Source: an uncultured Gemmatimonadales bacterium (GTDB taxonomy: Bacteria > Gemmatimonadota > Gemmatimonadetes > Gemmatimonadales > JACORV01). From it: a stretch of DNA of 64,000 nucleotides. Positions 6,732-49,933 of this stretch are shown here, in pieces (positions within the stretch are counted from its first letter, which is position 1; every line of letters starts with the position of its first letter). A program made the translations under genes and the position numbers. Location of the stretch: contig CAWDZR010000034.1 of NCBI GenBank assembly GCA_963806755.1, forward strand, positions 31,223 through 95,222, in the 5' to 3' direction. The notes under the pieces are model-generated. The model saw only the letters and a list, made by a program, of their open reading frames with translations. It was not told where the DNA came from and did no database searches.

Positions 6732-6919
6732 CACCGTGAGGCACGCGCAATCGCCGTGCCCCCGCGGCGGGGACACGGTCAGTCAGCCTCCGCCCGTAGC
6801 ATTGCGGACCCTGGATTGGCGAGTGGGCGCTTCGCCATTGCGCGCGCGGCCCGATTCTAGGCGGACGCGGCGGATCGCGCGCCGGGGGGGGGTGACCAAC
6901 CTCTGAGGGAACCGCTGCT

Positions 6920-13821: not shown

Positions 13822-14243
13822 AACCGTTCGACGCCCTCGGCCGGCTGGCCGGCCGCCTGTCGCCGCTCGCGCCCCTGTTCCTGCGACTCGCGGTCGGCTG
13901 GGTGTTTCTCCGTCACGGGATCATGAAGGTGAATATGGGGGCCGGCGCCGTGGCGGGATTCCTCGGCCACCTCGGCTTCCCCGTGCCCCACGCCTGGGCG
14001 GTGGTGCTCATCGTGGTCGAGACGGTCGGGGCCGGCTGCGTGGTGCTCGGGCTGTGGACCCGCTTCTGGGCGACGTGCCTCGCGGTGGACATGATCCTGG
14101 CGATCTGGCTGGCGGTGCTCCCGACGGGTCACGCGCCCGAGCTGGAGGGCCTGCTCCTGGCCGGCGCGCTCGCGCTGCTGGCGCTGGGCGACGGCCCCGT
14201 ATCCGTGGGCGCGCTGCTGCGGACGCGCGATGGGCAGAAGTGA
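13818..14243 (+). CDS. DoxX-family membrane protein
   Basis: ATGA overlap with the upstream gene. Has LFLRLAVGWVFLRHGIMK and four TM segments. Confidence 0.8.
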   Translation: MKPFDALGRLAGRLSPLAPLFLRLAVGWVFLRHGIMKVNMGAGAVAGFLGHLGFPVPHAWAVVLIVVETVGAGCVVLGLWTRFWATCLAVDMILAIWLAVLPTGHAPELEGLLLAGALALLALGDGPVSVGALLRTRDGQK

Positions 14244-14263
14244 CAGGACTGGAGAATGCAGTC

Positions 14264-14491
14264 GAGTTGCGAGACGCCGAGTTGCGCGTGGTTACGAGAC
14301 GGGAGTAATCGGAACGCAGGCCAGTTCTCAGTTGGCGGTCGAGGGCCCCCATGGGGGCGAGGAAGGCGGGGTCCCCGCGCAGCGGGGGATGGCCCCTCGC
14401 CCCCGTGGGGGACCGAGACCGACAACGCGTCCGCAGTGACGCACCGCGATCCTCGTCGCCGCTCACAACTTGGCGTCTCGCCACTGAACTC
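14264..14491. repeat. Nested long inverted repeat (~230 bp) in a convergent spacer; MITE-like, structured RNA or extended terminator
   Basis: The outer arms are 14264-14284 and 14466-14491, with a core of GCGAGACGCC / GGCGTCTCGC. The inner arms, 14346-14362 CCCCCATGGGGGCGAGG and 14395-14411 CCTCGCCCCCGTGGGGG, match 16/17. The central hairpin is 14372-14388, TCCCCGC-gca-GCGGGGA. Confidence 0.6.
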
Positions 14492-14509
14492 ACATCTGCG
14501 AGCTCACCT

Positions 14510-16798: not shown

Positions 16799-16803
16799 GG
16801 CCA

Positions 16804-18006
16804 CTACGATATGCCTTCCGCTGCGCCGGGGAAGGGTCGTTCCGGCTCGGGGCGCCGCAGGCGCGCCAGCCGCCGCATCGCCGCGATTCCGGCGGCCGGG
16901 CCCGCAGCCAGCACGACGAACGCCCAGCGCCAGCCGACCTCGGTCACGAGGTGCGGCACGAGCTGAATCGAGGCCATCGTCAAGAGGAAGCCGAGCGACG
17001 TCTGCAGGGTGAGCGCGGTGCCCACCGCGTGGGCGGGCGCCAGCTCCGTGACGAGGGCGCTGAACTGCGCCGAATCCGCCACGACCGTGAAGCCCCACAC
17101 CAGCGCCACGGCGACGGCCAGCGCCGGCCACGCCGCGCCGGCGCCGACGAGGACCGCGCACGTTCCGCTCGCCGCCATCGCCCAGATCGTCAGGCGCTCG
17201 CGCCCGACGCGGTCGGCGAGCCAGCCCCCCGCCACGCAGCCGGCACCGCCCACCGCGATCGCGGCGAAGCCGGCCACGTCGGCCGCGCGCGGCCCGAGCC
17301 CCGCGCCCGCCGCGAGGAACACCGCGATCCACGTCCACATCGCGTACAGCTCCCACATGTGCCCGAGGTACCCGCCGATGGCGAGCCGCACGCCGCGGTG
17401 CCGCACGACCGCGCCGACCAGGTTCCAGGCGAACGGCCGGCGTTCGAAGGGAAACGGGCCGTCGTGCCACGCGGCCGCCACCAGCAGCCCGCCCGCCGCC
17501 GCCGCGGCCGACGACCCGAGCACCACGGGCGCGAGGCCCGCGTGCTCCAGCCCGTGGACCAGGTACGGCATCGCCTTGCCCACCGTGAGCGCGCCCACGA
17601 TCGTGCCGATGGCGAAGCCGCGTCCGTCGCGGAACCAGGTGGCGATCATCTTCATCGCGGGCGGGTACACCCCGGCCAGGCAGAAGCCGGTGGCGCAGCG
17701 CGACAGGAGCGCGGGGCCGTACCCCGGGGCGGCCAGCAGCGCGGCGTTGCTCGCCGCGGCCGCCAGGGCCGCCGCCGCGAACAAGGTGCGCCCGGAGACC
17801 AGGTCGGCGAGGTTCAGCACCGCCGCCACGGCCGTCCCCGCGACGAAGCCGAGCTGCACGGCGGCCGTGAGCCAGCCCACGCGGGCCGGACCCAGCGACC
17901 ACGCGCGCTCCAGCTGGGGCCCGAGCGCGCTCGCCGAGAACCACACGGACATCCCGAGCAGCTCGGCCAGCGCGAGCAGGGCGAGGGCGCGGTTACGCGG
18001 GGCCAC
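16804..18006 (-). CDS. MFS transporter
   Basis: About 12 predicted TM helices with typical MFS loop motifs; GTG start at 18006. It lies 5 nt upstream of the GH3 gene. Confidence 0.85.
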   Translation of the reverse strand: MAPRNRALALLALAELLGMSVWFSASALGPQLERAWSLGPARVGWLTAAVQLGFVAGTAVAAVLNLADLVSGRTLFAAAALAAAASNAALLAAPGYGPALLSRCATGFCLAGVYPPAMKMIATWFRDGRGFAIGTIVGALTVGKAMPYLVHGLEHAGLAPVVLGSSAAAAAGGLLVAAAWHDGPFPFERRPFAWNLVGAVVRHRGVRLAIGGYLGHMWELYAMWTWIAVFLAAGAGLGPRAADVAGFAAIAVGGAGCVAGGWLADRVGRERLTIWAMAASGTCAVLVGAGAAWPALAVAVALVWGFTVVADSAQFSALVTELAPAHAVGTALTLQTSLGFLLTMASIQLVPHLVTEVGWRWAFVVLAAGPAAGIAAMRRLARLRRPEPERPFPGAAEGIS

Positions 18007-39359: not shown

Positions 39360-39665
39360 ATGCCGCGACCGAGGAAGCGACGCCGGTGCCGCCGGTTCGA
39401 GGGAGACCGGGTCTTCAAGCCCCGCAGCATCCCCATGCCGGAATTGTCGGTGGTGCGGCTGGCGCTGGACGAGCTGGAGGCGATGCGGCTGTGCGACGTG
39501 GACGGTCACGACCAGGAGGCGGCCGGAGCGCGGATGGGCGTATCCCGCGGCACGGTGCAGCGGCTGGTGGCGTCGGGACGCGCCAAGGTGATCACGGCGC
39601 TCGTCGAGTCCGCCGCACTCATCATCGAAGGAGGAGAGCGTGAAGCTGTGTATCCCCACGGTTGA
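39360..39665 (+). CDS. DUF134-family putative DNA-binding protein
   Basis: MPRPRKRRRC..F.P...P...V.L..DELEA.RL.D..G..QEEAA..MGVSR.T..R pattern (sigma-70 region-4-like HTH). Confidence 0.8.
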   Translation: MPRPRKRRRCRRFEGDRVFKPRSIPMPELSVVRLALDELEAMRLCDVDGHDQEAAGARMGVSRGTVQRLVASGRAKVITALVESAALIIEGGEREAVYPHG

Positions 39666-40056
39666 AAGCGCAGGTCTCCACGGGCGGATGTCGGGCCATT
39701 TCGGCAGCGCCCCGTTCTTCACGATCGTGGACACCGAGTCGGGAGCGTGCGAGGTGATGGCGAACGGCGGCGCCGTGCACCAGCACGGCGCGTGCGAGGC
39801 GGCCGGCGGCATGGAGGGTCACGCCGTGGACGCCGTCGTGTGCCGGGGACTGGGCCGGCGCGCGCTGGCCGGGCTGGCCGCGGCCGGGATCGCCGTGTAC
39901 GTGGCGGACGCGGAGGACGCGGCTGCCGCGCTCGCGCAGTATCGCGCGGGGAGCCTGTCGCCCATGGCCGAGGCGGCGGCGTGCCACGGCGGTGCGGGGC
40001 ACGCGCACGGGCCCCACGGTGCGGACGGGTGCGGACACGGGCCGGGCGGCCACTGA
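39640..40056 (+). CDS. NifX/NifB-C-terminal-like (dinitrogenase FeMo-cofactor-binding fold) protein with a Cys/His/Gly-rich tail
   Basis: GTG at 39640 follows GAAGGAGGAG and overlaps DUF134 by 26 nt. Core motif HFGSAPFFTIVD. The tail is CHGGAGHAHGPHGADGCGHGPGGH. Confidence 0.8.
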   Translation: MKLCIPTVESAGLHGRMSGHFGSAPFFTIVDTESGACEVMANGGAVHQHGACEAAGGMEGHAVDAVVCRGLGRRALAGLAAAGIAVYVADAEDAAAALAQYRAGSLSPMAEAAACHGGAGHAHGPHGADGCGHGPGGH

Positions 40057-40175: not shown

Positions 40176-40649
40176 ATGGCCGAAAGCGCCAGCCGGATCG
40201 CGATCATCGCGGGTCACGGCACCCTCGACGCGGCGTACCCGCCGCTCATCCTCGCCACCGCGGCCGCCGCCATGGACATGGAAGCGGCCATCTTCTTCAC
40301 CTTCTACGGTCTCGAGATCCTCAAGAAGGGCAACGCCGACCGCCTCATGGTCGCGCCGATCGCCAACCCGGCCATGCCGGTGCCCGTGCCCAACATCCTC
40401 GGGATGCTGCCCGGCATGACCGCGGCCGCGACCATGATGATGAACGGCTGGATGAAGAAGGCCCACGTCCTCAAGCCGAGCCAGCTGCTGGCGCAGGCGC
40501 AGGAGCTGAACGTCAAGCTCATCGCCTGCGAGATGACCATGAACGTGCTGGGCATCAAGCGCGATCAGCTGATCGACGGCATCACCGTGGCCGGCGCCGC
40601 GTCGTTCCTGTCGTTCGCCAGCGAGAACGCGATCACGCTCGCCTTCTAG
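40176..40649 (+). CDS. DsrE/DsrF/DsrH-like (DsrE3-type) sulfur-carrier family protein
   Basis: IAIIAGHGTLD...AAIFFTFYGL...KLIACEMTMNVLGIKRDQL pattern with the conserved Cys. Confidence 0.8.
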   Translation: MAESASRIAIIAGHGTLDAAYPPLILATAAAAMDMEAAIFFTFYGLEILKKGNADRLMVAPIANPAMPVPVPNILGMLPGMTAAATMMMNGWMKKAHVLKPSQLLAQAQELNVKLIACEMTMNVLGIKRDQLIDGITVAGAASFLSFASENAITLAF

Positions 40650-40842
40650 TCGCGGCCGCCGGCGCGGCGGCGCGACCGCCGCTCCGCGCGCCGCCCCGCG
40701 CCAAAGCGTCCCGTCCCGCCGCCGCCGCCGCGCCGCCGCCGCCGCACGCTGCGGCGGCGCTTCGGCTTTCCAACCGCTTCCCCGCCAATACGTCATGCCC
40801 GCCGGTCGAACGCCCGTTCGGAGATTGTCCGCAGGCGGCATA

Positions 40843-40866
40843 GCATTTGCGAACATTCGCAAATGC
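40843..40866. promoter_or_regulatory. Perfect 11-2-11 inverted repeat (ArsR/SmtB-type operator) overlapping the ArsR start codon
   Basis: GCATTTGCGAA-ca-TTCGCAAATGC; the ATG at 40863 lies inside the right arm. Confidence 0.65.
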
Positions 40867-41243
40867 GGAAGTTCAACACTCTCCGGGAGGCCGCGGTGCC
40901 CAAGGTCGACATCTTCGAGCTGCATGCCGAGGCCTGCAAGACCATCGCGCACCCCACGCGCCTGAAGATCCTCGCCCTCCTCGGCCGCCGCGAGATGAAC
41001 GTCGGCGAGCTGGCCGAGATCATCGGCGTGCCGATGCCGAACATCAGCCAGCACCTCACGGTGCTGAAGTCCGGCGGGCTGGTCCGCGCGCGCAGGGAGG
41101 GAGCCTCCATGCACTACCGGCTCGCCGACCGCCGCATGATCCAGGCGTGCACGCTGATCCGGTCGGTGCTGCTCGACCGCATGAAGGAGCGCGGACTGGC
41201 CGCGCAGAAGGTGGATCCCCGGTACGTCGTGTTCGCCGCGTAG
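40863..41243 (+). CDS. ArsR/SmtB-family transcriptional repressor with two cysteines (C25, C96)
   Basis: HPTRLKILALL...NVGELAEIIGVPMPNISQHLTVLKSGGLV winged-HTH signature. Confidence 0.9.
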   Translation: MRKFNTLREAAVPKVDIFELHAEACKTIAHPTRLKILALLGRREMNVGELAEIIGVPMPNISQHLTVLKSGGLVRARREGASMHYRLADRRMIQACTLIRSVLLDRMKERGLAAQKVDPRYVVFAA

Positions 41244-41284: not shown

Positions 41285-41536
41285 ATGGCACTGGATCTGG
41301 CGACGGTCAAGGCGGTGAAGACGGTGGACGCGCGGGGCACGGCGTGCCCCGGCCCCCTGCTCGAGGCCAAGCGCGCCATCGCGGCGGTCCCGGTCGGCGG
41401 CATCATGGAGGTGCTCTCCTCCGACGCCGGCACCAACGAGGACATCCCGCTGTGGGCGAAGAAGGTCGGCCACGAGTACCTCGGCAGCACCGAGGAGGCC
41501 GGCTACTGGCGGCTGTTCGTGAAGCGGGGCAAGTAG
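41285..41536 (+). CDS. tusA: TusA/SirA-family sulfurtransferase
   Basis: DARGTACPGPLL (CPxP active-site motif), 83 aa, AGGAGG upstream. Confidence 0.85.
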   Translation: MALDLATVKAVKTVDARGTACPGPLLEAKRAIAAVPVGGIMEVLSSDAGTNEDIPLWAKKVGHEYLGSTEEAGYWRLFVKRGK

Positions 41537-41985
41537 TGACCGCAGCGCCGGTGGCCCCCGCCACCACCCGGGACCCCGCCGCCCGCGGCGCGCCGCGGCC
41601 GAAGATCCTGGTCTTCTCGACCACCAACATCTCGGACCCGGGCATCGACCTGGCGGGCAGCCAGCATCTCGAGTACGCCCCCACGATCAAGGTCGTCAGC
41701 GTGCCGTGTTCCGGCGGGATCAACCCCAGCTGGATCGCCCACGCCATCGCGTCCGGGTTCGACGGCGTGTTCGTCGCCGCCGACGGCGGCGACTGCGCCT
41801 ACCTCCCCGATTGCACCGCGCGCACCGCCAGGACCGTGGAGCGCGCGCAGGCGCTGCTCAAGGAGCGCGGCCAGGACCCGCGGCGGGTGAAGATGGCCGC
41901 GATCTGCTCGGTGTGTTCAGAGCCGTTCGTCTCGCACATGAAGCAGTTCGGAGAGGCGCTGGGGAAGCTGCAGGGTGAGAGGTGA
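41536..41985 (+). CDS. MvhD/FlpD-like (methyl-viologen-reducing hydrogenase delta subunit family) protein
   Basis: GTG start overlaps the tusA stop (TAGTG). Pattern is KILVFSTTNISDPGIDLAG...VSVPCSGGI...GFDGVFVAADGGDCAY. Confidence 0.8.
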   Translation: MTAAPVAPATTRDPAARGAPRPKILVFSTTNISDPGIDLAGSQHLEYAPTIKVVSVPCSGGINPSWIAHAIASGFDGVFVAADGGDCAYLPDCTARTARTVERAQALLKERGQDPRRVKMAAICSVCSEPFVSHMKQFGEALGKLQGER

Positions 41986-42069
41986 GGAGTGAGAGGTGAG
42001 ACGGGTAGGTGAGAAGTGAGAGGGGGAGCGGCGTGAGAGGGGGAACGGCGTGAGAGGGAGAGCGGCGTG
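41974..42069 (+). repeat. Purine-rich tandem repeats: ~7 heptamers (GGTGAGA-type), then 3 x 17-bp units ending in the hdrA GTG start
   Basis: The 17-bp units are GTGAGAGGGGGAGCGGC (42016-42032), GTGAGAGGGGGAACGGC (42033-42049) and GTGAGAGGGAGAGCGGC (42050-42066). GTGAcc follows at 42067, which is the CDS start. Confidence 0.85.
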
Positions 42070-44847
42070 ACCGACGCGAAATCCGACTGCGACGTCCTGA
42101 TCGTGGGCGGCGGCATCGCCGGCATGGAGAGCGGCCTGACCCTGGGCGACATGGGCTACAAGGTCGCCCTCGTCGAAAAGGAGCCCTCGGTCGGCGGGAA
42201 GATGATCCTGCTGAGCAAGGTCTTCCCGACCCTCGATTGCGCCTCCTGCATCTCCACGCCGAAGATGGCCGCCGTCTCGCACCACCCCAACGTCACGGTC
42301 CACATCTCGAGCGGGGTGGAGCGGATCACCCCGCGCGGCGACGGCACGTTCACCGCCGAGCTGGTACACAAGCCGACCTTCGTGGATCCGGCGGCGTGCA
42401 CGGGCTGCCAGGACTGCGAGCGCGCGTGCACCGTCGCCATCCCCGACCGGTTCAACGCCGACCTCGTGGCGACCCGCGCCGCCCACATCGCCTTCCCCCA
42501 GGCTGTGCCGAAGAAGGCCGTCATCGAGCGGGCGGGCACCTCGCCCTGCTCGTTCGCGTGCCCCGCGGGCGTCAAGGCGCATGGCTACGTCTCGCTGGTG
42601 CGCGCCGGGAAGTACGAGGAGGCGTTCCGGCTGCACATGGAAGACGCGCCGATTCCCGGCAGCCTCAGCCGCGCCTGCTACGCCCCGTGCGAGGGGGAGT
42701 GCACGCGCGGCGAGGTCGAGGGCACCGTCTCGATCCGCGGCATCAAGCGCTTCATGGTGGATTGGTATTACGACCGCCACCCCGAGCCGGAATACGGCCC
42801 GGCGGCGGACCGGCGCGGCAAGCGCGTCGCCGTCGTCGGCTCCGGGCCGGCCGGACTCTCGGCGGCCTACTTCCTCGCCCGCGGCGGCTACGACGTCACG
42901 GTCTTCGAGTCCGCCGCCGAGGCCGGCGGCATGCTGCGCCACGGCATCCCGCCCTTCCGGCTCCCCCGCGCGATCGTGGACCGCGACATCAAGAACGTCA
43001 CGGCACTCGGCGTGGAGATCCGCACCGGCGCGCCCGTCGCGTCCGTCGCCTCGCTCGCCGCCCAGGGCTTCGACGCGACCTTCCTCGCCCTCGGCACGAT
43101 GGAGGGCCAGACGATGGACGTGCCGGGCCGCGAGCTGGCGGGCGTCCTGGACTCCATGGAGCTCCTCGAGGCGGCGAACCTGGGCCGCGAACTGGACCTC
43201 GCCGGCAAGCGCGTCGCCGTCATCGGCGGCGGCAACGTCGCGATCGACTCGGCGCGGATGGCCCTGCGCCTCGGCGCCGCCGATGTCGCGATCTGGTACC
43301 GCCGCACCCGGAAGGAGATGCCGGCGCACGACTTCGAAGTGCAGGCGGCGCTGGACGAGGGGATCGCGCTGCACGAGCTGCGGACGCCAGCGCGGTTCGT
43401 CGGCGAGAGCGGGAAGCTGACGGGCGTCGAGTGGCAGGCGATGAAGCTCGGCGAGCCCGACGCCAGCGGCCGACGGCGTCCGGTGCCGGTGTCCGGCTCC
43501 GAGACGGTCCGTCCCGCGGACGTCGCGGTGCTCGCCATCGGGCTCTCGCCCAGCACCGGTCCGTTCGCGGCGGAGCTGGCGCTCCGGAACAACGGCACCA
43601 TCACGGCCGACCGCGAGACGCTGGCGACCTCCCGGCCCGGCGTGTTCGCCGGCGGCGACGCCGTGAGCGGGCCATCGATGATCATCGAGGCCGTGGCGCA
43701 GGGAAAGCGCGCCGCGTTCTACATCGACCGCTACCTGCAGGGCCGGCCGCTCGACGGCCTCACGTTCGACGCCCGGCTGCCGGTGGTGGCGCGGCAGGCG
43801 GTGCTCGGCCGCACCTCGACCGGGCCGGAGTCCCGGCCGCCCGCGGCCGCGCACGACACCGAGGCCGCCGCCCGCGCCCGCTCGCTCGCGGAGATCGAGC
43901 ACACGATGAGCGAGGACGAGGCCCGCTACTGCGCGAGCCGCTGCCTCGACTGCGGCGTGTGCTCCGAATGCCACGAGTGCGTGGCGGCCTGCCCGGCGGG
44001 CGCGATCCGGCTCGACCAGCGCGAGACGCGGGAAACGCTGCACGCCGCCTCGGTGCTCGTGGCCACCGGCTTCCAGCTGTTCGACGCGAAGCGGAAGCCC
44101 ACCTACGGCTTCGGGACGCTGCCCAACGTCATCACCGCGATGCAGATGGACCGGATCCTCGCGCCCACCCGGCCCTACAACGCCGTGGTCCGCCCCTCCG
44201 ACGGCAAGGCGCCGGCGAACGTGGCGTACGTGCTGTGCACCGGCTCGCGCGACTGCACGGTGGACAACCGGCTCTGCTCGCGGGTCTGCTGCATGTACTC
44301 GATCAAGCAGGCGCAGCTGTTGATGGGCGCGCTGCCGCTGGCCGACATCACGATCTACTACATCGACATCCGCGCCTTCGGGAAGGGCTACGAGGAGTTC
44401 TTCCAGCAGGCGAAGGGGATGGGCGTGCGGTTCGTGAAGGGCCGCGTCGCGAAGATCGAGGGCGCGGCGGACGGCGACCTCACCGTCCTCTACGACGACA
44501 TCGAGGGCACGGGCCGCACGGCGCGGGCCGGGCACGACCTGGTGGTCCTCTCCGTGGGGCTCTCGGCGAACCCGGAGGCGTTCGGGCTGTTCGCTCCGGG
44601 GCAGCTCCAGGCGGACGAGTTCCGCTACGTGAAGGAGCCGGACGAGGACCTCGAGCCGGGGAAGACGAGCCTGGAGGGCGTGTTCGTCGCCGGCACGGCC
44701 TCCGCCATCAAGGACATTCCGGACACGATCCTGCACTCGGGAGCCGCGGCGGCGCAGGTGGCCGCGTACCTGCGGCGGCGCTCCGCCGGGGTCGGCGCCG
44801 GCGCGCCGGCCGCCCTCGCGGCGGCGGGCGGCGGGGGGGCCCGATGA
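42067..44847 (+). CDS. HdrA-like flavoprotein with an embedded GltD/NfnB-type NAD(P)H:FAD module (926 aa)
   Basis: The HdrA N-terminal half has DVLIVGGGIAGM, CASCIS and CTGCQDCERAC. The insert spans aa ~158-560 (nt ~42538-43746) and carries CSFACPAG...ACYAPCEGEC, VAVVGSGPAG, VAVIGGGNVAID and GVFAGGD. The HdrA C-terminal half has CLDCGVCSECHECVAACP and CTGSRD...CSRVCC. Confidence 0.9.
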   Translation: MTDAKSDCDVLIVGGGIAGMESGLTLGDMGYKVALVEKEPSVGGKMILLSKVFPTLDCASCISTPKMAAVSHHPNVTVHISSGVERITPRGDGTFTAELVHKPTFVDPAACTGCQDCERACTVAIPDRFNADLVATRAAHIAFPQAVPKKAVIERAGTSPCSFACPAGVKAHGYVSLVRAGKYEEAFRLHMEDAPIPGSLSRACYAPCEGECTRGEVEGTVSIRGIKRFMVDWYYDRHPEPEYGPAADRRGKRVAVVGSGPAGLSAAYFLARGGYDVTVFESAAEAGGMLRHGIPPFRLPRAIVDRDIKNVTALGVEIRTGAPVASVASLAAQGFDATFLALGTMEGQTMDVPGRELAGVLDSMELLEAANLGRELDLAGKRVAVIGGGNVAIDSARMALRLGAADVAIWYRRTRKEMPAHDFEVQAALDEGIALHELRTPARFVGESGKLTGVEWQAMKLGEPDASGRRRPVPVSGSETVRPADVAVLAIGLSPSTGPFAAELALRNNGTITADRETLATSRPGVFAGGDAVSGPSMIIEAVAQGKRAAFYIDRYLQGRPLDGLTFDARLPVVARQAVLGRTSTGPESRPPAAAHDTEAAARARSLAEIEHTMSEDEARYCASRCLDCGVCSECHECVAACPAGAIRLDQRETRETLHAASVLVATGFQLFDAKRKPTYGFGTLPNVITAMQMDRILAPTRPYNAVVRPSDGKAPANVAYVLCTGSRDCTVDNRLCSRVCCMYSIKQAQLLMGALPLADITIYYIDIRAFGKGYEEFFQQAKGMGVRFVKGRVAKIEGAADGDLTVLYDDIEGTGRTARAGHDLVVLSVGLSANPEAFGLFAPGQLQADEFRYVKEPDEDLEPGKTSLEGVFVAGTASAIKDIPDTILHSGAAAAQVAAYLRRRSAGVGAGAPAALAAAGGGGAR

Positions 44848-46580
44848 GCGCGAAGAAGATCGGCGCCTTCATCTGCCACTGCGGCGGCAACATCTCCGAC
44901 TTCGTGGACGTGGAGCAGGTGCGGGCCGCGGCGGAGAAGGAAGCCGGAGTGGCGGTGGCCAAGACCTTCCTGTTCGCGTGCTCCGACGCGGCGCAGCAGG
45001 AGATGGAAGCCACCATCAAGGCCGAGGGGCTCGACGGGATCGTCGTCGCGTCGTGCTCGCCGAAGCTGCACCTCTCGACCTTCCGGGCGATGGCGCAGCG
45101 GGCCGGCTTGAACCCGTACATGTACACGCAGTGCAACGTGCGCGAGCAGTGCTCGTGGGCGCATCGCCACGCGACGGGGCCGGCGACGGCCAAGGCCACG
45201 GACCTCGTCCGGGCCGGCGTCGCCCGCACGCGGCTCGGCAGCCCGCTGACCGAGCTGCGGATCGAGACGACGCAGGCGGCGATCGTGATCGGCGCCGGCG
45301 TGGCGGGGATGCGGGCCGCGCTCGCCCTCGCCGACATGGGCGTCGCGGTGTACGTCGTCGAGCGCGCCGCCGAGGTGGGCGGGCGTATCCCGGCGTGGGG
45401 AAAGCTCTTCCCCAACGACCGCGACGGCGCCGACCTGGTGGCGACGCTGCGGCGCGAGCTGGCCACGCGAGAGAACGTCACCCTGCTGCTCGAGGCCGAG
45501 GTCGTCGAGAAGCGCGGGACCGTCGGGGACTTCACGGTGACCGTACGCGCCGGGAACGACACCCTGTCCTTGCACGTCGGCGCCATCGTCGTCGCCACCG
45601 GCTTCGACCCGTACGCACCGGCCGAGGGCGAGTTCGGCTACGGCCTTCCGGGCGTCGTGACCCTGCCCGAGTTCCGCGAGCTGCTGGCCCGGAACGGCCG
45701 CCCGCGCCGCTCCGACGGCCGGCCCGCGCGGACCATCGCCTACATCTACTGCGTGGGGAGCCGCCAGGCCGAGTCCGAGGCGTGCCCGAAGCCGAACCGC
45801 TACTGCTCGCGGTACTGCTGCAATGCGGCCGTGCACACCGCGCTCCTGGCCCGCGCCACGGCGGGTGGCGAGGCGATCGACCAGTACCACCTCTACCGCG
45901 ACATGCGGACGTACGGGAAGAACGAGTTGCTCTTCGAGGAGGCGGGGCGGAAGGGCTCCGTCTTCCTCCGCTTCGCCGACGACGCGCCGCCGGCGGTCGA
46001 GCGCGACGGCGAGGGCCTCCGCGTCCGGGTAAAGGACACCCTGATGACGGGCGAGGAGGTGGAGATCCCCGCCGACCTCGTGGTGCTGGTCACGGGGATG
46101 GTCCCGCGCGAAAACGCGACGCTGCTGCAGGCGCTGAAGCTCCCGCTCGATGCCGGCGGATTCTTCAACGAGATCCACCCCAAGCTGCGGCCCGTCGAGA
46201 CGGTGATCGACGGCGTGTTCATCGCCGGCACGGCGCAGGGCCCGAAGTCGCTGGCGGAGAGCGTGGCCAGCGGGCTCGCGGCCGTGTCGAAGGGCGCCGC
46301 GCTGCTGCTCAAGGGCTACGTGGACCTGCCCCCGCTGGTGGCGAGCGTGGACGCGGCGCAGTGCACCTGGTGCGGCGAATGCGCCGCCGCCTGCCCCTAC
46401 GAGGGCGCGGTCGAGAAGGTGCGGGTCGGCTCGAAGGAAGTCGCCACCATCCACGCCGAGCTGTGCAAGGGGTGTGGCGGCTGCGTGCCGGTGTGCGCCA
46501 GCGAGGCGATCGACCTCGCGGGCTACAGCAACGCGCAGATGCGCGCGATGATCGAGGCCCTGGCCGTGGAGGCCGCGTGA
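44844..46580 (+). CDS. HdrA-type flavoprotein with canonical architecture (N-terminal Cys domain, TrxR-like FAD domain, C-terminal 2x[4Fe-4S])
   Basis: ATGA overlap with the upstream gene. Motifs are FICHCGGNIS, AIVIGAGVAGM, CVGSRQ...CSRYCC, CTWCGECAAACP and CKGCGGCVPVC. Confidence 0.9.
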   Translation: MSAKKIGAFICHCGGNISDFVDVEQVRAAAEKEAGVAVAKTFLFACSDAAQQEMEATIKAEGLDGIVVASCSPKLHLSTFRAMAQRAGLNPYMYTQCNVREQCSWAHRHATGPATAKATDLVRAGVARTRLGSPLTELRIETTQAAIVIGAGVAGMRAALALADMGVAVYVVERAAEVGGRIPAWGKLFPNDRDGADLVATLRRELATRENVTLLLEAEVVEKRGTVGDFTVTVRAGNDTLSLHVGAIVVATGFDPYAPAEGEFGYGLPGVVTLPEFRELLARNGRPRRSDGRPARTIAYIYCVGSRQAESEACPKPNRYCSRYCCNAAVHTALLARATAGGEAIDQYHLYRDMRTYGKNELLFEEAGRKGSVFLRFADDAPPAVERDGEGLRVRVKDTLMTGEEVEIPADLVVLVTGMVPRENATLLQALKLPLDAGGFFNEIHPKLRPVETVIDGVFIAGTAQGPKSLAESVASGLAAVSKGAALLLKGYVDLPPLVASVDAAQCTWCGECAAACPYEGAVEKVRVGSKEVATIHAELCKGCGGCVPVCASEAIDLAGYSNAQMRAMIEALAVEAA

Positions 46581-46849
46581 GCGCGCCCGCGACGCCCCGC
46601 GCTCCCGCCGAGATCATGCGGGACGAGATGGTGATGCGCCCGAAGATCCTCGCGGCGCTCGCCGACGGGCCGAAGACCATCCCCGAAATCGCGGACGCGC
46701 TCGGCGCGCCGGCCCCGGAGGTCACGCTCTGGGTCATGGCGCTGCGCCGCTACGGGGCGCTGGAGGAGATGCCCAAGCCGAAGGCGGAGGACTACTACAG
46801 GTACCTGGCGGCGGGCACGGGGGCACAGGGGCACGGGGGCACGGAGTAG
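46577..46849 (+). CDS. small hypothetical protein (77-90 aa), possibly winged-helix-like
   Basis: High GC3. A GTGA overlap start is at 46577, with an alternative ATG at 46616. Has KILAALADGPKTIPEIADALG, and the 3' end is built from GGGGCACR repeats. Confidence 0.65.
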   Translation: MSAPATPRAPAEIMRDEMVMRPKILAALADGPKTIPEIADALGAPAPEVTLWVMALRRYGALEEMPKPKAEDYYRYLAAGTGAQGHGGTE

Positions 46850-46897
46850 GCGGGCACTGAGGACTGGGGTCTAGGGGCTAGGGGTTAGGGCTTAGGG
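46813..46897 (+). repeat. G-tract array (GGGGCACR x4, then GGGG-TCTA-GGGG-CTA-GGGG-TTA-GGG-CTTA-GGG) on the coding strand between the small gene and the qmoC-like gene
   Basis: Read directly from the sequence; it satisfies the G3+N1-7 x4 G-quadruplex motif. Confidence 0.8.
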
Positions 46898-46912: not shown

Positions 46913-48046
46913 ATGGCGGTGAGGCTGGATCCGGGGTTGCATCGCGAGATCGCGAAGTACGGCGGCGGGGACGTCACCGCGTGCATGAACTGCGGCAACT
47001 GCACGGCGACCTGCCCGCTCTCGACCGACACGCAGGGCTTCCCGCGGCAGATCATCCACCTGCTCCAGGTGGGCAACCGTGAGAGGCTGCGGACGTCGCT
47101 CGAGCCGTGGCTGTGCTACTACTGCGGCGAGTGCTCGGAGACGTGCCCGCGCGACGCGAACCCCGCCGAGACGATGATGGCCGCGCGCCGCTGGCTCACC
47201 GGCCAGTACGACTGGACCGGGATCGGCGGGCGGATCTACGCCTCGAAGTGGGTCCAGCTGGCCGCGGTGCTCCTCGTGGGGCTGGCGATCGCCGGCCTGT
47301 TCGTGCTGCTGCACGGCCCCGTGGTGACCACCACCGTAGCGCTCAACACCTTCGCGCCGGTGGAATGGGTCGAGCGCGCCGACTGGATCATGGCCGGCAC
47401 GCTCTCGATCCTGCTGCTCTCCAACGTGTGGCGCATGTACCGCTTCGTCATGCGCCCGGTGACCGGCGCGGCGATCCCGGTCGGCGTCCTGGTGCGCGAA
47501 GCGAAGACATTCGTCCTCCACTTCGTCACGCAGATGCGCTGGCGCGCCTGCACGACCAGCCGGTTCCGGTGGCTCAAGCACCTGCTCCTGGTGAGCGGCT
47601 ACGTCACGATGATGGTGCTGGTCGAGGTCTTCCTCCGCGCGTTCCAGACCGACCAGGTCGTCCCGTTCTGGCACCCGACGCGGCTGTTCGGCTATTACGC
47701 GACCGCCGTGATCCTCTACGGCACGGGAGACTTCATCGTCGGGCGCATCCGCAAGGGCGACTGGATCCACAAGCACTCGCACTTCAGCGACTGGGTGTTC
47801 GTGGGGCTGCTGTTCCTGGTCGCGCTGACCGGGATCCTGGTCCACATCGCGCGCGTCTCCGGGCACCCGATCGCCACCTACGACCTCTACGTGATCCACC
47901 TCGCCGTGGTGGCCCCGTTCCTGATTCTGCAGGTCCCGTTCGGCAAGTGGAGTCACATGTTCTACCGCCCCTTCGCGATGTACCTCGATGCGGTGCGGAA
48001 CCGGTTGCAGGCCGCCGCGGCCCCGGCGCTGGAGCGCGCGGCGTGA
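46913..48046 (+). CDS. QmoC-like fusion: HdrC-type 2x[4Fe-4S] domain plus HdrE/DsrM/NarI-type membrane di-heme b domain
   Basis: CMNCGNCTATCP and CYYCGECSETCP, then 6 TM helices with conserved His residues and FGKWSHMFYRP. Confidence 0.85.
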   Translation: MAVRLDPGLHREIAKYGGGDVTACMNCGNCTATCPLSTDTQGFPRQIIHLLQVGNRERLRTSLEPWLCYYCGECSETCPRDANPAETMMAARRWLTGQYDWTGIGGRIYASKWVQLAAVLLVGLAIAGLFVLLHGPVVTTTVALNTFAPVEWVERADWIMAGTLSILLLSNVWRMYRFVMRPVTGAAIPVGVLVREAKTFVLHFVTQMRWRACTTSRFRWLKHLLLVSGYVTMMVLVEVFLRAFQTDQVVPFWHPTRLFGYYATAVILYGTGDFIVGRIRKGDWIHKHSHFSDWVFVGLLFLVALTGILVHIARVSGHPIATYDLYVIHLAVVAPFLILQVPFGKWSHMFYRPFAMYLDAVRNRLQAAAAPALERAA

Positions 48047-48469: not shown

Positions 48470-49933
48470 ATGAAAGGCGCGAAATCCATGCAACACAGAC
48501 TCGTTTCGGGATTCGTCGTGGCGCTCGGCCTCGCGGGCGCCGGCGCCGCCACGGCCCAGACCGCCGGCTATCTCCTCCCCTGCTCGTCCGCGTCGCAGCT
48601 GGGGCGCGGGTGCACGCTGCTCGCCGCGCAGGGCGACTTCTCCACCATCCTGGGCGACCCGGCCGCGCTGGCCGGACTCGGCGCGCGCGGCCTCACCGTC
48701 AGCGGCGCCGCGTTCATGCCCTCGCTGCACTACGCCAACGCGCTGAACCCCGGCCAGGACGGCAAGAACAACGTGTTCCCGATGCCGGCCGTGTTCTTCG
48801 CCGACCGGCAGCGCGGCCCGGTGACGCTGGGCCTCGGCGCGCAGACCATCGGCGGCATGGGCGCGGACTACTCGCTCGCCAACGCCGTGCTCGGCGCCGC
48901 GCAGCGCTACCACTCCAAGGTGGCCCTGATGAAGGGCGGCCTCGCCGCGGCGGTGCTGGTCGGTTCGAAGCTCTCGGTGGGCGCGATGGTGGGCGCCCTC
49001 TACGGCCAGCTCGAATTCGCGACGCCGTACAGCCTCAATCCCATGAGCCTCGCCGGCATGGCGGGCCTGGCCGCGGACCCGAGCTACGCCACGATGATGC
49101 AGAGCTTCACCGAGGCCACGGCCTACACCAACCTCACCGGCCTGACGGGCTTCGGCCTCACCGGCGGCCTGAGCGTGCACTACCAGCCCACGAGCGCGAT
49201 GACCGTCGCCCTCGCGTGGACCCCGGCGACCACGCTGACGCTGAGCGGCGGCACCGCGACGATGGACATGAACGCCCAGTTCGGGCTGCTCTACCAGGGC
49301 ATGGTCGCCGCGAAGGGCAGCGCCGCCGCCGTGAACGCCCAGCTGGCGGGTTTCGGCATCAACATGGCCAACGGCATGGCCACGAGCTTCCAGGCGGAGA
49401 CCGACTTCGGCATTCCGCAGACGCTGACGCTCGCCGTCGGCTTGCGCCCGTCCGACCGGCTGAGCGTCGGCGTGGACCTCGGGTGGATCGGCTACGCCAG
49501 CGCCTTCAAGACGATGCCGATGCGGATGACCGGCGGCACCAACGCCAACATCAACATCCTCATGAACGCGTCACCGACGAACGGCACCTTCGCCACGGCG
49601 TGGCCGCTCGACTGGAAGGACAGCTGGGTCGCCCGGGCCGGGGCCGAGTACGAGTTGACGCCGGCGCTGGCGCTCAGGGCGGGCGGGATCTACGGCTCCA
49701 ACCCGGTGCCGAGCAACACGCTGTTCACCATCTTCCCGGCCGTGGCCGAAGCCGCCGCGACGGTGGGTGTCGGATACCGGATGGGCAACGCCACGCTCGA
49801 CCTGGGCTACGCCCACACGTTCACCAACACGCAGACCGGCGCCACGCCGAGCCTGGTCGCGCAGGAGTACGCCGGCGCCACGAGCAGCCTCGGCGAAGAC
49901 CAGCTTTCGGCCGGCGTCACCTGGCGGTTCTAG
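48470..49933 (+). CDS. outer-membrane beta-barrel, FadL/OmpP1/TodX-like
   Basis: Signal peptide (AGAATAQ), alternating amphipathic beta-strands and a terminal ...GVTWRF aromatic residue. Confidence 0.7.
   Translation: MKGAKSMQHRLVSGFVVALGLAGAGAATAQTAGYLLPCSSASQLGRGCTLLAAQGDFSTILGDPAALAGLGARGLTVSGAAFMPSLHYANALNPGQDGKNNVFPMPAVFFADRQRGPVTLGLGAQTIGGMGADYSLANAVLGAAQRYHSKVALMKGGLAAAVLVGSKLSVGAMVGALYGQLEFATPYSLNPMSLAGMAGLAADPSYATMMQSFTEATAYTNLTGLTGFGLTGGLSVHYQPTSAMTVALAWTPATTLTLSGGTATMDMNAQFGLLYQGMVAAKGSAAAVNAQLAGFGINMANGMATSFQAETDFGIPQTLTLAVGLRPSDRLSVGVDLGWIGYASAFKTMPMRMTGGTNANINILMNASPTNGTFATAWPLDWKDSWVARAGAEYELTPALALRAGGIYGSNPVPSNTLFTIFPAVAEAAATVGVGYRMGNATLDLGYAHTFTNTQTGATPSLVAQEYAGATSSLGEDQLSAGVTWRF

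Follow-up and report, generated by a model that had tools for sequence, protein, structure and literature searches.

Does the 926-residue reading frame at 42067–44847 encode one genuine redox protein or two genes artificially joined, and which electrons might such a protein carry? We analyzed the frame within its window, i.e., a 64,000-nucleotide stretch of DNA from an uncultured Gemmatimonadales bacterium. Its third-position GC is 0.97, at a window GC content of 72%. Domain searches divided the product into an HdrA N-part (aa 1–157), a GltD/NfnB-type unit (aa 158–631) and an HdrA C-part (aa 632–904). Pfam placed Fer4_20 at aa 158–235 and Pyr_redox_2 at aa 253–546. NCBIfam GltD/NfnB-type models matched aa 156–560 (E 1e-71 to 1e-126) and HdrA models aa 625–904, the product scoring 292–431 bits with the latter, far below their cut-offs of 1100–1400. 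Against the PDB, NfnB (4YLF_B) matched aa 155–560 with E 4e-83, the StnC/NfnABC chains 8OH5_C and 9BOV_A matched the inserted unit with E ~1e-100, and methanogen HdrA (5ODC and relatives) gave E 1e-88 to 1e-93. The AF2 monomer was moderately confident (pLDDT 74.7, pTM 0.56), with pLDDT 84–96 in the main body of the unit and below 50 in the Fe–S loops; Foldseek matched it to NfnB 4ylf_B with a target-normalised TM-score of 0.81 and an rmsd of 2.9 Å.

The original prediction had read the product as an HdrA whose sequence is broken by a complete NAD(P)H unit of the GltD/NfnB type. Pfam, NCBIfam and PDB matches agree with it, the GltD-type fold at aa ~158–560 is supported by the domain searches, all motifs it quoted are present in the translation, and its assignment to the HdrL kind is borne out by likeness at the level of architecture. 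By homology, the gene product is hence shown to be an HdrL-type iron–sulfur flavoprotein. This architecture is already published, as HdrL in 2009 and as ANME-1 HdrA9–11 in 2022. The prediction's remark that HdrA–GltD fusions occur in some anaerobes was correct as far as it went, since HdrL is known from Desulfobacterium autotrophicum HRM2 and from an 'HdrABC/HdrL' cluster of Syntrophobacter fumaroxidans (PMC2702500; PMC5947623), but it omitted the HdrA–NfnB proteins HdrA9/10/11 of ANME-1, for which NADPH is the proposed carrier (Chadwick et al. 2022, PMC9012536).

Table 1. Features of the hdrL gene cluster and parts of the HdrL-type protein, in window positions.
Feature	Position	Strand	Remarks
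DsrE2-like sulfur carrier	40176..40649	+	157 aa; Pfam DrsE_2 E 2e-43
Palindrome GCATTTGCGAAcaTTCGCAAATGC	40843..40866	.	perfect 11-2-11; overlaps arsR start codon
ArsR/SmtB-family regulator	40863..41243	+	126 aa; Pfam HTH_20/HTH_5
TusA sulfur carrier	41285..41536	+	83 aa; Pfam TusA E 5e-22; active-site CPGP at Cys21
MvhD/FlpD-type [2Fe-2S] electron-transfer subunit	41536..41985	+	149 aa; Pfam FlpD E 4e-29
HdrL-type protein	42067..44847	+	926 aa; GTG start
HdrA part 1, aa 1–157	42067..42537	+	aligns to 5ODC_A residues 146–290
GltD/NfnB-type unit, main body, aa 158–560	42538..43746	+	Pfam Fer4_20, Pyr_redox_2; PDB matches
Variable linker, aa 561–611	43747..43899	+	low identity, low pLDDT
Permuted piece of GltD Fe–S domain, aa 612–631, SEDEARYCASRCLDCG	43900..43959	+	profile re-match; StnC/NfnABC order
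Second motif of inserted ferredoxin domain, aa 632–655, C632-C635-C638-C642-P	43960..44031	+	aligns to 5ODC_A 293–303 onward
HdrA part 2, aa 656–904	44032..44778	+	aligns to 5ODC_A up to 566
Second HdrA paralogue, HdrA'	44844..46580	+	578 aa; ATG overlaps hdrL stop codon
Small conserved winged-helix protein	46577..46849	+	90 aa from GTG 46577; start set by alignment with 80–90 aa homologues
QmoC-like membrane anchor	46913..48046	+	377 aa; HdrC-like 2x[4Fe-4S] domain, then hydrophobic helices

Conservation was assessed on 82 orthologues from bacteria and archaea with 51–82% identity. HdrA part 1 holds the FAD GxGxxG fold, Cys58/Cys61, which correspond to Cys194/197 of the M. wolfeii enzyme, and the first ferredoxin motif C111-C114-C117-C121; these cysteines are invariant (82/82). 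Only 8–15 residues precede GxGxxG in all 82 proteins, i.e., HdrL lacks the N-terminal domain of HdrA. HdrA part 2 completes the thioredoxin-reductase-type FAD domain and contributes the cluster motif C724-x12-C737-x3-C741-C742 as well as Lys747, the equivalent of methanogen Lys409, at flavin N5. C724, C737, C742 and K747 are invariant, and C741 (79/82) is the single exception among the 21 assigned cofactor-ligand cysteines, 20 of which are invariant. A C-terminal ferredoxin domain is missing as well, with 0–37 residues beyond aa 904 in all 82; here, an Ala/Gly-rich tail (aa 905–926) ends the protein.

The flanks of the insertion align to consecutive residues of 5ODC_A (aa 10–155 to 146–290, aa 628–903 to 289–566), and this alignment therefore shows the unit to be nested between the two cluster motifs of the HdrA ferredoxin domain. 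The unit had been predicted to sit where this domain normally is; the domain is instead retained and split, with both CxxCxxCxxxC motifs present and invariant (82/82 also for C632-C635-C638-C642). HdrA does return downstream as predicted, at aa 632 rather than in the loosely placed range aa 560–620. Likewise, the unit does not end at about aa 560, as the linker and a permuted piece, aa 612–630, also belong to it.

The main body of the unit carries the Fe–S ligands C161, C165, C204, C208 and C212 together with Lys227, an FAD Rossmann fold (VAVVGSGPAG), an NAD(P)H Rossmann fold (VAVIGGGNVA) and YRRT at aa 411–414. K227 and R298 are invariant, and YRR is found in 68 of the 82 orthologues. Mean identity drops to 34% in the linker, compared with 58–73% elsewhere in the protein, and its pLDDT is below 50 at aa 569–588. 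The permuted piece reads 'EARYxxxRCLDCG'; Cys626 and Cys629, both invariant, complete the two GltD-type clusters, and C622 is not conserved. The usual N-terminal "RCLxCG" piece of the Fe–S domain thus follows the Rossmann folds: when aa 596–630 were moved ahead of aa 158, the Fer4_20 match grew from profile positions 30–109 (48.9 bits) to 2–109 (76.7 bits). By these profile and motif comparisons, the insert is shown to be a circularly permuted StnC/NfnB-type unit with a predicted two [4Fe-4S] clusters, FAD and an NADPH site.

Its best sequence and fold matches are StnC of the Stn transhydrogenase and the large subunits of NfnABC (8OH5_C, 9BOV_A, 9N5U_A), together with NfnB (4YLF_B). StnC/NfnABC share the permuted order, starting with 'PCxxxCP' and ending with 'EAxxxxxRCLxCG', and moreover the proximal-cluster Lys, the NADPH-type YRR motif and the insertion into another Fe–S protein. 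Their host is, however, NuoG/formate-dehydrogenase-like rather than HdrA, and Stn relies on the HydBC-like StnAB as its bifurcating partner. Classical NfnB differs in its unpermuted order, its Glu ligand and its NfnA partner. Lys227 stands at the proximal cluster as in StnC, where NfnB has Glu; by sequence, the unit is of the StnC type. In StnC, this module has been demonstrated to admit electrons from NADPH without bifurcation (PMC10482914).

The adjoining HdrA' consists of an N-terminal cluster domain, an FAD domain with the C303/C321/C325/C326 cluster and a C-terminal 2x[4Fe-4S] ferredoxin domain. Its residues 3–234 align to 5ODC_A 3–234 and residues 241–573 to 317–649, so that chain residues 237–315 are precisely missing. 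HdrA' lacks the inserted ferredoxin domain and the equivalents of Cys194/197; no cysteine occurs in this region in 62 of 62 HdrA' homologues, and 48 of the 62 have His instead of Lys at the flavin-N5 position. From this exact domain complementarity we conclude that HdrL and HdrA' probably form a heterodimer, i.e., one asymmetric 'HdrA dimer'. The same rule was proposed for tandem HdrA pairs of ANME (PMC9012536): the paralogue that keeps the N-terminal domain lacks Cys197, and its counterpart has Cys197 but not this domain. Here, the insertion-bearing paralogue is itself part of such a complementary pair; HdrA9–11 belong to methane-oxidising archaea with a CoM/CoB context. PMC9012536 reports neither a TusA/DsrE2/QmoC context nor a circular permutation of the Fe–S domain.

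We compared gene order at 81 distinct related loci, and essentially every one has this cluster, typically in the order TusA–MvhD–HdrL–second HdrA–small winged-helix protein–(QmoC or HdrC+HdrB), usually with ArsR and DsrE2. The original prediction had rightly named a second HdrA, a QmoC-like anchor, TusA and DsrE2 as neighbors; the combination it called unusual is the rule. We found no description in the literature of a conserved sulfur-relay gene cluster around HdrL. TusA, immediately 5' of mvhD, is present in 77/81 loci and is kept in both QmoC and HdrBC variants; its Cys21 is invariant (80/80). MvhD (78/81 loci) has five invariant cysteines (77/77). The DsrE2-like protein scored 152 bits with NCBIfam SulfCarrDsrE2, under the cut-off of 210; Cys118 is invariant in 38/38 cluster-linked homologues, and 41/81 loci have such a gene no farther than 7 kb away.

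ArsR (42/81 loci) scored 88.9 bits with HTH_metalloreg (cut-off 55) and 63 bits with BigR, below the BigR cut-off. Its homologues have Cys25 in 45% and Cys96 in 84% of cases; as this pair is not conserved, persulfide sensing cannot be asserted. The palindrome GCATTTGCGAAcaTTCGCAAATGC is unique in the window, with 0 expected from shuffles, and its core also lies directly 5' of arsR in the closest related locus; we regard it as a candidate ArsR operator.

The winged-helix protein has no cysteine and is encoded between hdrA' and qmoC/hdrC in 64/81 loci. We found 186 homologues, with 66–94% identity among the 120 matches listed; its AF2 model (pLDDT 81.7) resembles SmtB, SqrR and MarR cores most closely (TM-scores 0.6–0.74). 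The QmoC-like anchor matched the NCBIfam qmoC model over its full length with 181 bits, below the cut-off of 300. It has hydrophobic segments at aa 108–144, 221–244 and 290–345; four of its eight cysteines are invariant and the other four occur in 47/48 homologues, and His223 and His329 are invariant, with His348 in 47/48. In 23/81 loci HdrC+HdrB replace QmoC. The QmoC variant has no CCG domain and no evident catalytic site for sulfur chemistry.

Among known systems, HdrL of HRM2 and S. fumaroxidans is alike in architecture, being a large HdrA homologue with a glutamate-synthase-type NAD(P)H unit and adjoining mvhD. In S. fumaroxidans, hdrABC accompanies it, and sulfate-reducing cells contain these proteins in abundance. 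These clusters adjoin dsrABC, fdh or hdrABC, and HdrL there includes selenoproteins or versions with additional domains; by contrast, the fixed partners here are TusA, HdrA', the winged-helix protein, QmoC or HdrBC, and DsrE2/ArsR, and most carriers of the present HdrL are not sulfate reducers. Methanogen HdrA (HdrABC-MvhAGD, 5ODC) shares the FAD domain, the C-x12-C-x3-CC motif, Lys409, Cys197, both ferredoxin-domain motifs and the MvhD partner. Unlike it, HdrL has neither the N-terminal domain nor the C-terminal ferredoxin domain and carries a 474-aa NADPH unit, and the cluster encodes no hydrogenase.

QmoABC/QmoAB-HdrBC of sulfate reducers and sulfur oxidisers likewise combine two HdrA paralogues, an MvhD module and a QmoC-type Fe–S/membrane subunit, and QmoC and HdrBC also interchange in Qmo systems (PMC10504309). 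The present cluster differs from QmoABC in its NADPH unit, separate MvhD, winged-helix subunit and TusA/DsrE2 instead of aprBA/sat. In the sHdr system of sulfur oxidisers (shdrC1B1AHC2B2 with TusA/DsrE), genes for TusA and DsrE-family carriers likewise accompany those of an Hdr-like complex, and a small hypothetical gene separates hdrA from hdrC-hdrB, positionally like our winged-helix gene. Lipoate-binding protein genes and a double HdrBC set are absent here, and sHdrA has neither the ferredoxin domain nor the NADPH unit of HdrL. With DsrL, an NfnB-like NAD(P)H:acceptor oxidoreductase of DsrAB, there is a precedent for coupling between NAD(P)H and dissimilatory sulfur enzymes through an NfnB-type unit.

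Taken as a whole, the best explanation, to which we assign a probability of about 0.7, is that HdrL and its probable partner HdrA' belong to an NADP(H)-linked Qmo/Hdr-like complex. With the M. wolfeii enzyme as the template, electrons would pass from NADPH to the FAD and the two clusters of the GltD unit, on to the two ferredoxin-domain clusters of HdrL, and via the N-domain cluster of HdrA', completed by Cys61 of HdrL, to an HdrA flavin. The path from the NADP(H) site would thus probably cross to the partner subunit. The pyridine-nucleotide site was predicted to be wired "directly" to the putative bifurcating FAD; by homology, at least 4–5 [4Fe-4S] clusters would lie between them. The branch point would be one of the two HdrA-type flavins, from which one arm may lead to QmoC and the quinone pool or, in genomes with HdrBC instead of QmoC, via HdrBC to a disulfide or persulfide. 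On this mapped path, the NADP(H) site would cap the branch whose terminus in methanogen HdrA is free ferredoxin.

The same proteins might instead form a plain, non-bifurcating wire, i.e., an NADPH:quinone oxidoreductase or, in HdrBC variants, an NADPH:disulfide/persulfide reductase, whose HdrA flavins act as relay or catalytic centers without energy coupling, for example in sulfane-sulfur detoxification or assimilation. We consider this possible but rather unlikely. In its favor, reduction of quinone or persulfide by NADPH is exergonic and requires no coupling, a module of the StnC type simply lets NADPH electrons in, the cluster, putatively under ArsR control, encodes sulfur carriers typical of reactive-sulfur handling, many aerobic soil lineages are among the organisms that have it, and the related HdrA-like sHdrA (6TJR match) is not known to bifurcate (PMC11094781). 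However, a three-armed cofactor tree (NADP(H), QmoC/HdrBC, MvhD) with two HdrA flavins would be elaborate for this task, the N5 residue Lys747 is invariant, and MvhD, conserved as it is, would have no role.

It is improbable that the NfnB-like FAD bifurcates too, giving two coupled bifurcating flavins in one protein, as suggested for ANME-1 HdrA–NfnB fusions (PMC9012536). The invariant Arg298 does correspond to NfnB Arg201 at flavin N5, but StnC has the same Arg, there not contacting N5, and Lys227 is that of non-bifurcating StnC rather than NfnB's Glu. Moreover, the GltD unit has a single visible exit, its two clusters, and the cluster lacks a gene for an NfnA-like high-potential partner both in the window and at two annotated loci.

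Still less credible is a canonical QmoABC serving adenylylsulfate (APS) reductase in dissimilatory sulfate reduction or sulfite oxidation. Two HdrA paralogues with a QmoC-like haem/Fe–S anchor would fit, sulfate reducers have QmoAB-HdrBC alternatives, and 'type II' Qmo, close to HdrA, occurs with or without Apr/Dsr (PMC10504309). Against it stand the sub-threshold qmoC score and the fact that MvhD has a gene of its own instead of being part of the B subunit. No aprAB, sat or dsr was found among the scanned window ORFs, which leave out stretches such as 14243–16804, or in the annotated flanks of two related loci (L001, L003). Canonical QmoA is not known to have an NADPH unit.

An assembly chimera joining hdrA and gltD/nfnB at ~nt 42538 and 43746, a concern of the original prediction for which nothing more than the abrupt homology change at both junctions speaks, is practically excluded by the same ~900-aa architecture in more than 120 full-length protein clusters and at least 589 species genomes from more than 12 phyla, including the cultured strain Desulfofundulus thermobenzoicus DSM 14055, by 15 members at least 90% identical from independent ENA and JGI assemblies, by ligand cysteines kept on either side of both junctions, and by an inserted Fe–S domain completed only by residues 3' of the second junction. 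HdrA- and GltD-derived parts diverge at similar rates among the 82 orthologues. The HdrL-type protein is a real and widely conserved redox protein.

For the NADP(H)-linked Qmo/Hdr-like complex, physiology is the weakest step of our argument. Most likely, this complex, putatively under ArsR control, would connect NADP(H) and the quinone pool with sulfane sulfur carried by TusA/DsrE2, and an HdrA flavin may provide the coupling through flavin-based bifurcation or confurcation.

The hdrL reading frame lies in a window of 72% GC, starts with GTG and has a third-position GC content of 0.97. Its 926-aa product contains every motif quoted in the original prediction, which had read it as HdrA carrying an inserted GltD/NfnB-type unit. 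In Pfam, aa 158–235 match the GltD-type Fe-S domain Fer4_20 and aa 253–546 the two-Rossmann unit Pyr_redox_2. GltD/NfnB-type NCBIfam models cover aa 156–560 (E 1e-71 to 1e-126) and HdrA models aa 625–904. Among PDB entries, T. maritima NfnB (4YLF_B) matched aa 155–560 with E 4e-83, and methanogen HdrA chains matched both flanks with E 1e-88 to 1e-93. We also compared an AF2 model of moderate confidence (pLDDT 74.7, pTM 0.56, Fe-S loops below 50) with NfnB in Foldseek and obtained a target-normalised TM-score of 0.81 at an rmsd of 2.9 Å. As Pfam, NCBIfam and PDB matches all cover aa 158–560, and the Foldseek match agrees, the lack of a GltD-type fold in this region can be dismissed. One polypeptide thus combines a FAD domain of HdrA type with an NAD(P)H unit of GltD/NfnB type; the fusion is real and was read correctly at the domain level.

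An assembly chimera was ruled out by full-length relatives, independent near-identical assemblies and the even divergence of the parts. Among 5.8 billion proteins searched, more than 120 clusters of about 900 aa matched with 95–100% query coverage and 65–91% identity. These clusters span many phyla and carry the annotation 'heterodisulfide reductase subunit A' or 'FAD-dependent oxidoreductase'. The 90% cluster of HdrL itself has 15 members, which stem from independent assemblies of ENA and JGI; 11 are 925–941 aa long and the others, from shorter contigs, 163–908 aa. In an alignment of 82 orthologues (51–82% identity), HdrA- and GltD-derived parts diverged similarly, with mean identities of 58–73%, and the linker (aa 561–611) had 34%. 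In a scan of one genome per species, at least 589 species genomes encoded an HdrL relative. The best match among those listed was a Gemmatimonadales MAG (82% identity to HdrL), and Desulfofundulus thermobenzoicus DSM 14055 is one cultured strain among the carriers.

We deleted aa 158–560 from HdrL and aligned the remainder to HdrA of M. wolfeii (5ODC_A). Residues 10–155 corresponded to 5ODC_A 146–290 and residues 628–903 to 5ODC_A 289–566. The flanks hence meet at 290/289, so that the interruption separates neighbouring residues of the inserted ferredoxin domain, which we take to be residues 237–315 of the M. wolfeii protein. The break follows the first ferredoxin motif (C111-C114-C117-C121) and precedes the second (C632-C635-C638-C642-P). 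The ferredoxin domain is therefore not replaced by the insert but split and kept, with the unit placed between its two CxxCxxCxxxC motifs. The scaffold retains Cys58/Cys61 (Cys194/197 in 5ODC_A), Lys747 (Lys409 at the flavin N5) and the cluster motif C724-x12-C737-x3-C741-C742 of the HdrA FAD domain. C61, C724, C737, C742 and K747 are invariant among the orthologues, and C741 is present in 79 of 82. The N-terminal cluster domain and the C-terminal 2×[4Fe-4S] ferredoxin domain are absent from HdrL, whose alignment spans 5ODC_A 146–566; the 82 orthologues have 8–15 residues ahead of GxGxxG and 0–37 after aa 904. Scores of HdrL against the NCBIfam HdrA equivalogs (292–431 bits) were below the cut-offs of 1100–1400.

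The insert contains all NfnB/GltD elements, i.e., Fer4_20 and the FAD and NADPH Rossmann folds, and its Fe-S domain is circularly permuted. In unaltered HdrL, Fer4_20 is matched only from profile position 29–30 onwards, and the segment SEDEARYCASRCLDCG (aa 614–630), located beyond both Rossmann folds and linker, looks like the N-terminus that GltD/NfnB usually have. When we moved aa 596–630 ahead of aa 158–560, the Fer4_20 match rose from 48.9 to 76.7 bits and covered profile positions 2–109; positions 2–29 are supplied by aa 604–630, past the Rossmann folds. StnC (8OH5_C) and the large subunits of NfnABC (9BOV_A, 9N5U_A), which matched best in the PDB, share this permuted order, and their alignments with HdrL extend through 'EAxxEAsRCLeCG'. 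Cys 161, 165, 204, 208, 212, 626 and 629 and Lys227 are all invariant, and Cys8, Cys622 and Cys730 are not conserved. Since the permuted piece completes Fer4_20, the seven cysteines together with Lys227 can, as judged from the sequence, ligate both GltD-type clusters. A single cluster is the meeting point of the unit's two ends, and this could be why nesting within a small (75-residue) ferredoxin domain is possible. The Glu ligand of the proximal [4Fe-4S] cluster of NfnB is missing from HdrL, where the invariant Lys227 takes this site and corresponds to StnC Lys170. HdrL Arg298 is equivalent to NfnB Arg201 and StnC Arg239.

A YRR[ST] motif after the second Rossmann strand is linked to NADPH specificity. 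HdrL has YRRT at aa 411–414, aligned with 'vyrrt', the NADPH-type motif of NfnB (4YLF_B). A YRR-type motif occurs in 68 of the 82 orthologues, YLR in one (locus L044) and CLE or SLE in 13 (loci L029, L032, L034–L036, L038, L039 (Thermoplasmata), L046/L050/L061, L060, L064 and L076), the CLE group belonging mainly to Thermoplasmata and Kiritimatiellales/Pontiella. Glu at the usual NADH-selecting position suggests that these proteins are NADH-like and that the cofactor has switched within the HdrL family.

Table. Window positions of the genes and sequence elements described in the text
Feature	Position	Strand	Remark
NiFeSe_Hases large subunit	2790-4064	-	
Oxidored_q6 small subunit	4028-4864	-	
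NAD_binding_1 + DHODB_Fe-S_bind subunit	4861-5772	-	
Fer4_22 subunit	5688-6776	-	
Nitro_FeMo-Co protein	39640-40056	+	directly 5' of dsrE2
DsrE2-like	40176-40649	+	
GC-rich spacer	40651-40766		past dsrE2
Palindrome	40843-40866		overlaps arsR ATG
ArsR-type regulator	40863-41243	+	
TusA	41285-41536	+	
MvhD	41536-41985	+	directly upstream of hdrL
Purine-rich tandem repeats	41974-42070		mvhD-hdrL spacer
HdrL	42067-44847	+	
HdrA'	44844-46580	+	ATG overlaps hdrL stop codon
Small 90-aa protein	46577-46849	+	GTG start set by alignment
Heptamer repeats	46866-46897		spacer between small winged-helix gene and qmoC
QmoC-like	46913-48046	+	with hydrophobic helices
FadL/Toluene_X-type channel	48470-49933	+	directly 3' of cluster

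The neighbourhood of hdrL had been called unusual. We fetched 83 related loci, of which two were duplicates. The 81 distinct loci represent more than 12 phyla, archaeal Thermoplasmata among them. In these loci, the order TusA–MvhD–HdrL–HdrA'–small protein was near-universal and defines this orthogroup. Within 7 kb, TusA was found at 77 of 81 loci, MvhD at 78, the second HdrA paralogue HdrA' at 75 and the small protein at 64, with misses mostly at contig ends. The last gene encodes a QmoC-like protein at 44 loci, an HdrC+HdrB pair at 23 and both at one; DsrE2 and ArsR genes lie nearby at 41 and 42 of the 81 loci, respectively. TusA Cys21 is invariant in 80 of 80 sequences, and DsrE2 Cys118 is likewise invariant. 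The window holds no HdrB/CCG gene, and the QmoC variant lacks a CCG-type catalytic site. Scanning the cluster for sigma-70 promoters and terminators gave nothing useful in this 72% GC DNA.

HdrA' matched 5ODC_A at 3–234 and 317–649; what is missing is precisely the inserted ferredoxin domain (237–315). No Cys stands at the Cys194/197 position in any of 62 HdrA' homologues, and the equivalent of Lys409 is His in 48 of them. For tandem HdrA genes of ANME, Chadwick et al. inferred heterodimers from domain complementarity: because Cys197 ligates the N-domain cluster of the partner, an N-terminal domain without Cys197 pairs with a Cys197 without N-terminal domain (PMC9012536). Complementarity between HdrL and HdrA' covers all four accessory elements. 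The last ferredoxin motif of HdrA' has Cys544 as its second Cys; this residue is present in 39 of 62 homologues and replaced by Gly or Glu in the rest. In a third of the family, one C-terminal cluster may therefore be [3Fe-4S] or absent.

The QmoC-like protein aligned over its full length with the QmoC equivalog NF038018, a family with an Fe-S and a haem-b membrane domain, at 181 bits, below the cut-off of 300. Among 48 homologues, four of its eight cysteines are invariant and four occur in 47; of the histidines, His223 and His329 never vary and His348 is found in 47. Against the four conserved His ligands expected for two haems, these homologues show only three. Cys213 (46 of 48) lies in the membrane part, ten residues ahead of His223 and outside the Fe-S motifs.

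The small protein has 186 homologues, mostly annotated as hypothetical, and the best 120 of the 186 are 66–94% identical. Its AF2 model (pLDDT 81.7) is a winged helix, with SmtB, SqrR and MarR cores as best structural matches (TM-scores 0.6–0.74). We considered a second transcription factor. The protein is a bare winged helix without dimerisation helices, its gene has overlapping start and stop codons, and it keeps a fixed place between hdrA' and qmoC/hdrC. For these reasons, and because of its high conservation, we favour a structural subunit.

The perfect palindrome GCATTTGCGAAcaTTCGCAAATGC at the arsR start codon is AT-rich in this 72% GC genome. The closest Gemmatimonadales relative (locus L004, 5888–5903) has the palindrome core at this position too, where the other 82 fetched loci lack it; we regard the palindrome as a candidate operator. 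We do not assert a persulfide-sensing ArsR of the SqrR/BigR type: the BigR match was below cut-off, and among homologues linked to the cluster, 45% have one of the two cysteines and 84% the other. The spacer past dsrE2 consists of very GC-rich CCG/CGG repeats with imperfect hairpins (arms of 19–22 nt, 73–84% complementary, no T-tract), which may form an attenuator or terminator ahead of arsR. Purine-rich tandem repeats fill the mvhD–hdrL spacer and reach into the hdrL start codon. They comprise a 7-nt unit, GGTGAGA (7.3 copies), and a 17-nt unit, GTGAGAGGGGGAGCGGC (3.2 copies, 92% matches, score 96), each 17-mer carrying a Shine-Dalgarno-like GGGGGAG followed by GTG. The spacer ahead of qmoC contains the heptamer repeats GGGGCTA/GGGCTTA, with G-tracts spaced as in a G-quadruplex motif.

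Further genes surround the cluster. The small Nitro_FeMo-Co protein (E 5e-19) has a Gly/His-rich tail (…GHAHGPHGADGCGHGPGGH); its gene is not conserved at the related loci, where only L006 has one, on the other strand. FadL-type genes, as found 3' of the cluster here, also flank it in two distant relatives (L001, 1930–3258 and 4442–5725; L028, 13356); their presence may be due to chance or reflect a route taken by a hydrophobic substrate. Four adjacent minus-strand genes at 2790–6776 resemble a group-3b-type (sulfhydrogenase-like, NAD(P)-linked) [NiFe] hydrogenase and would provide this genome region with a second NAD(P)-linked redox module.

Nothing in the HdrL architecture is categorically new. 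The definition of HdrL comes from D. autotrophicum, where an HdrA/glutamate-synthase fusion adjoins mvhD (PMC2702500), and an HdrABC/HdrL/MvhD set was abundant in S. fumaroxidans with sulfate (PMC5947623). An NfnB inside the inserted ferredoxin domain of HdrA was already drawn for ANME-1 in 2022 (PMC9012536). HdrL has been named since 2009, and it shares the fused domains, the interrupted ferredoxin domain and the adjacent mvhD with the fusions described before (Strittmatter 2009; Chadwick 2022). QmoAB–HdrBC alternatives and an HdrA-like 'type II' Qmo, with or without Dsr/Apr, are also known (PMC10504309); neither aprBA nor sat was found in those ORFs of the window that were scanned or in the L001 and L003 flanks. 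The sHdr system comprises an shdrC1B1AHC2B2 set with lipoate-binding protein genes (PMC11094781). The present cluster differs from it, as the window has no HdrB/CCG gene and related loci have at most one hdrC–hdrB pair. What we add is the nested position, the permuted StnC-type Fe-S domain and the putative complementary heterodimer in a strictly conserved sulfur-carrier cluster. This heterodimer within its conserved cluster may be an undescribed, widespread enzyme system. Full-text searches gave no description of the TusA/DsrE2-linked cluster; an earlier one may exist.

For a mechanism, we traced electron paths on the M. wolfeii enzyme as summarised in PMC9012536. Electrons could leave through a ferredoxin exit arm, from the flavin via the N-domain cluster with Cys197 of the partner and the inserted ferredoxin domain to the NADP(H) unit. 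The FAD-domain cluster arm would lead to QmoC and quinone or to HdrBC, and the ferredoxin domain at the C-terminus to MvhD and a further partner. A GltD module of this kind serves StnC as an NADPH entry that does not bifurcate (PMC10482914). Because of this, and because no NfnA-like gene was found in the cluster or at the annotated loci L001 and L003, the inserted unit would be an NADP(H) port, with any bifurcation placed at an HdrA flavin. From the universal TusA (Cys21) and the frequent DsrE2 (Cys118), we argue that carrier-bound sulfur is substrate or product of the complex.

Taken together, the TusA–MvhD–HdrL–HdrA'–winged-helix–(QmoC/HdrBC) cluster, with or without DsrE2 and ArsR, might be an undescribed, widespread respiratory or redox module. 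Its asymmetric HdrA heterodimer would bifurcate or confurcate, coupling carrier-bound sulfane sulfur to the reduction of NADP+ and quinone, or the reverse; the sulfur, at about −200 to −270 mV, would lie between NADP and quinone. We give this joint reading a probability of roughly one in four.

The orthogroup shows with unusual clarity how HdrA modules get rewired. HdrL holds the ferredoxin-exit arm capped by the putative NADP(H) port and HdrA' holds the MvhD and HdrC/QmoC arms; together they would make one asymmetric dimer, and the circularly permuted port ties the HdrL insert to the StnC/NfnABC lineage. The strict cross-domain conservation of TusA, often with DsrE2/ArsR, and the interchangeable quinone/disulfide module point to a widespread sulfur-linked NADP(H) enzyme carried by many uncultured soil and sediment lineages. 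At least 589 species carry the cluster; they belong to more than 12 phyla, among them soil Gemmatimonadota, Acidobacteriota, Chloroflexota and Thermoplasmata. If the joint reading is true, non-classical sulfur metabolisers could gain NADPH from reduced sulfur without reverse electron transport.
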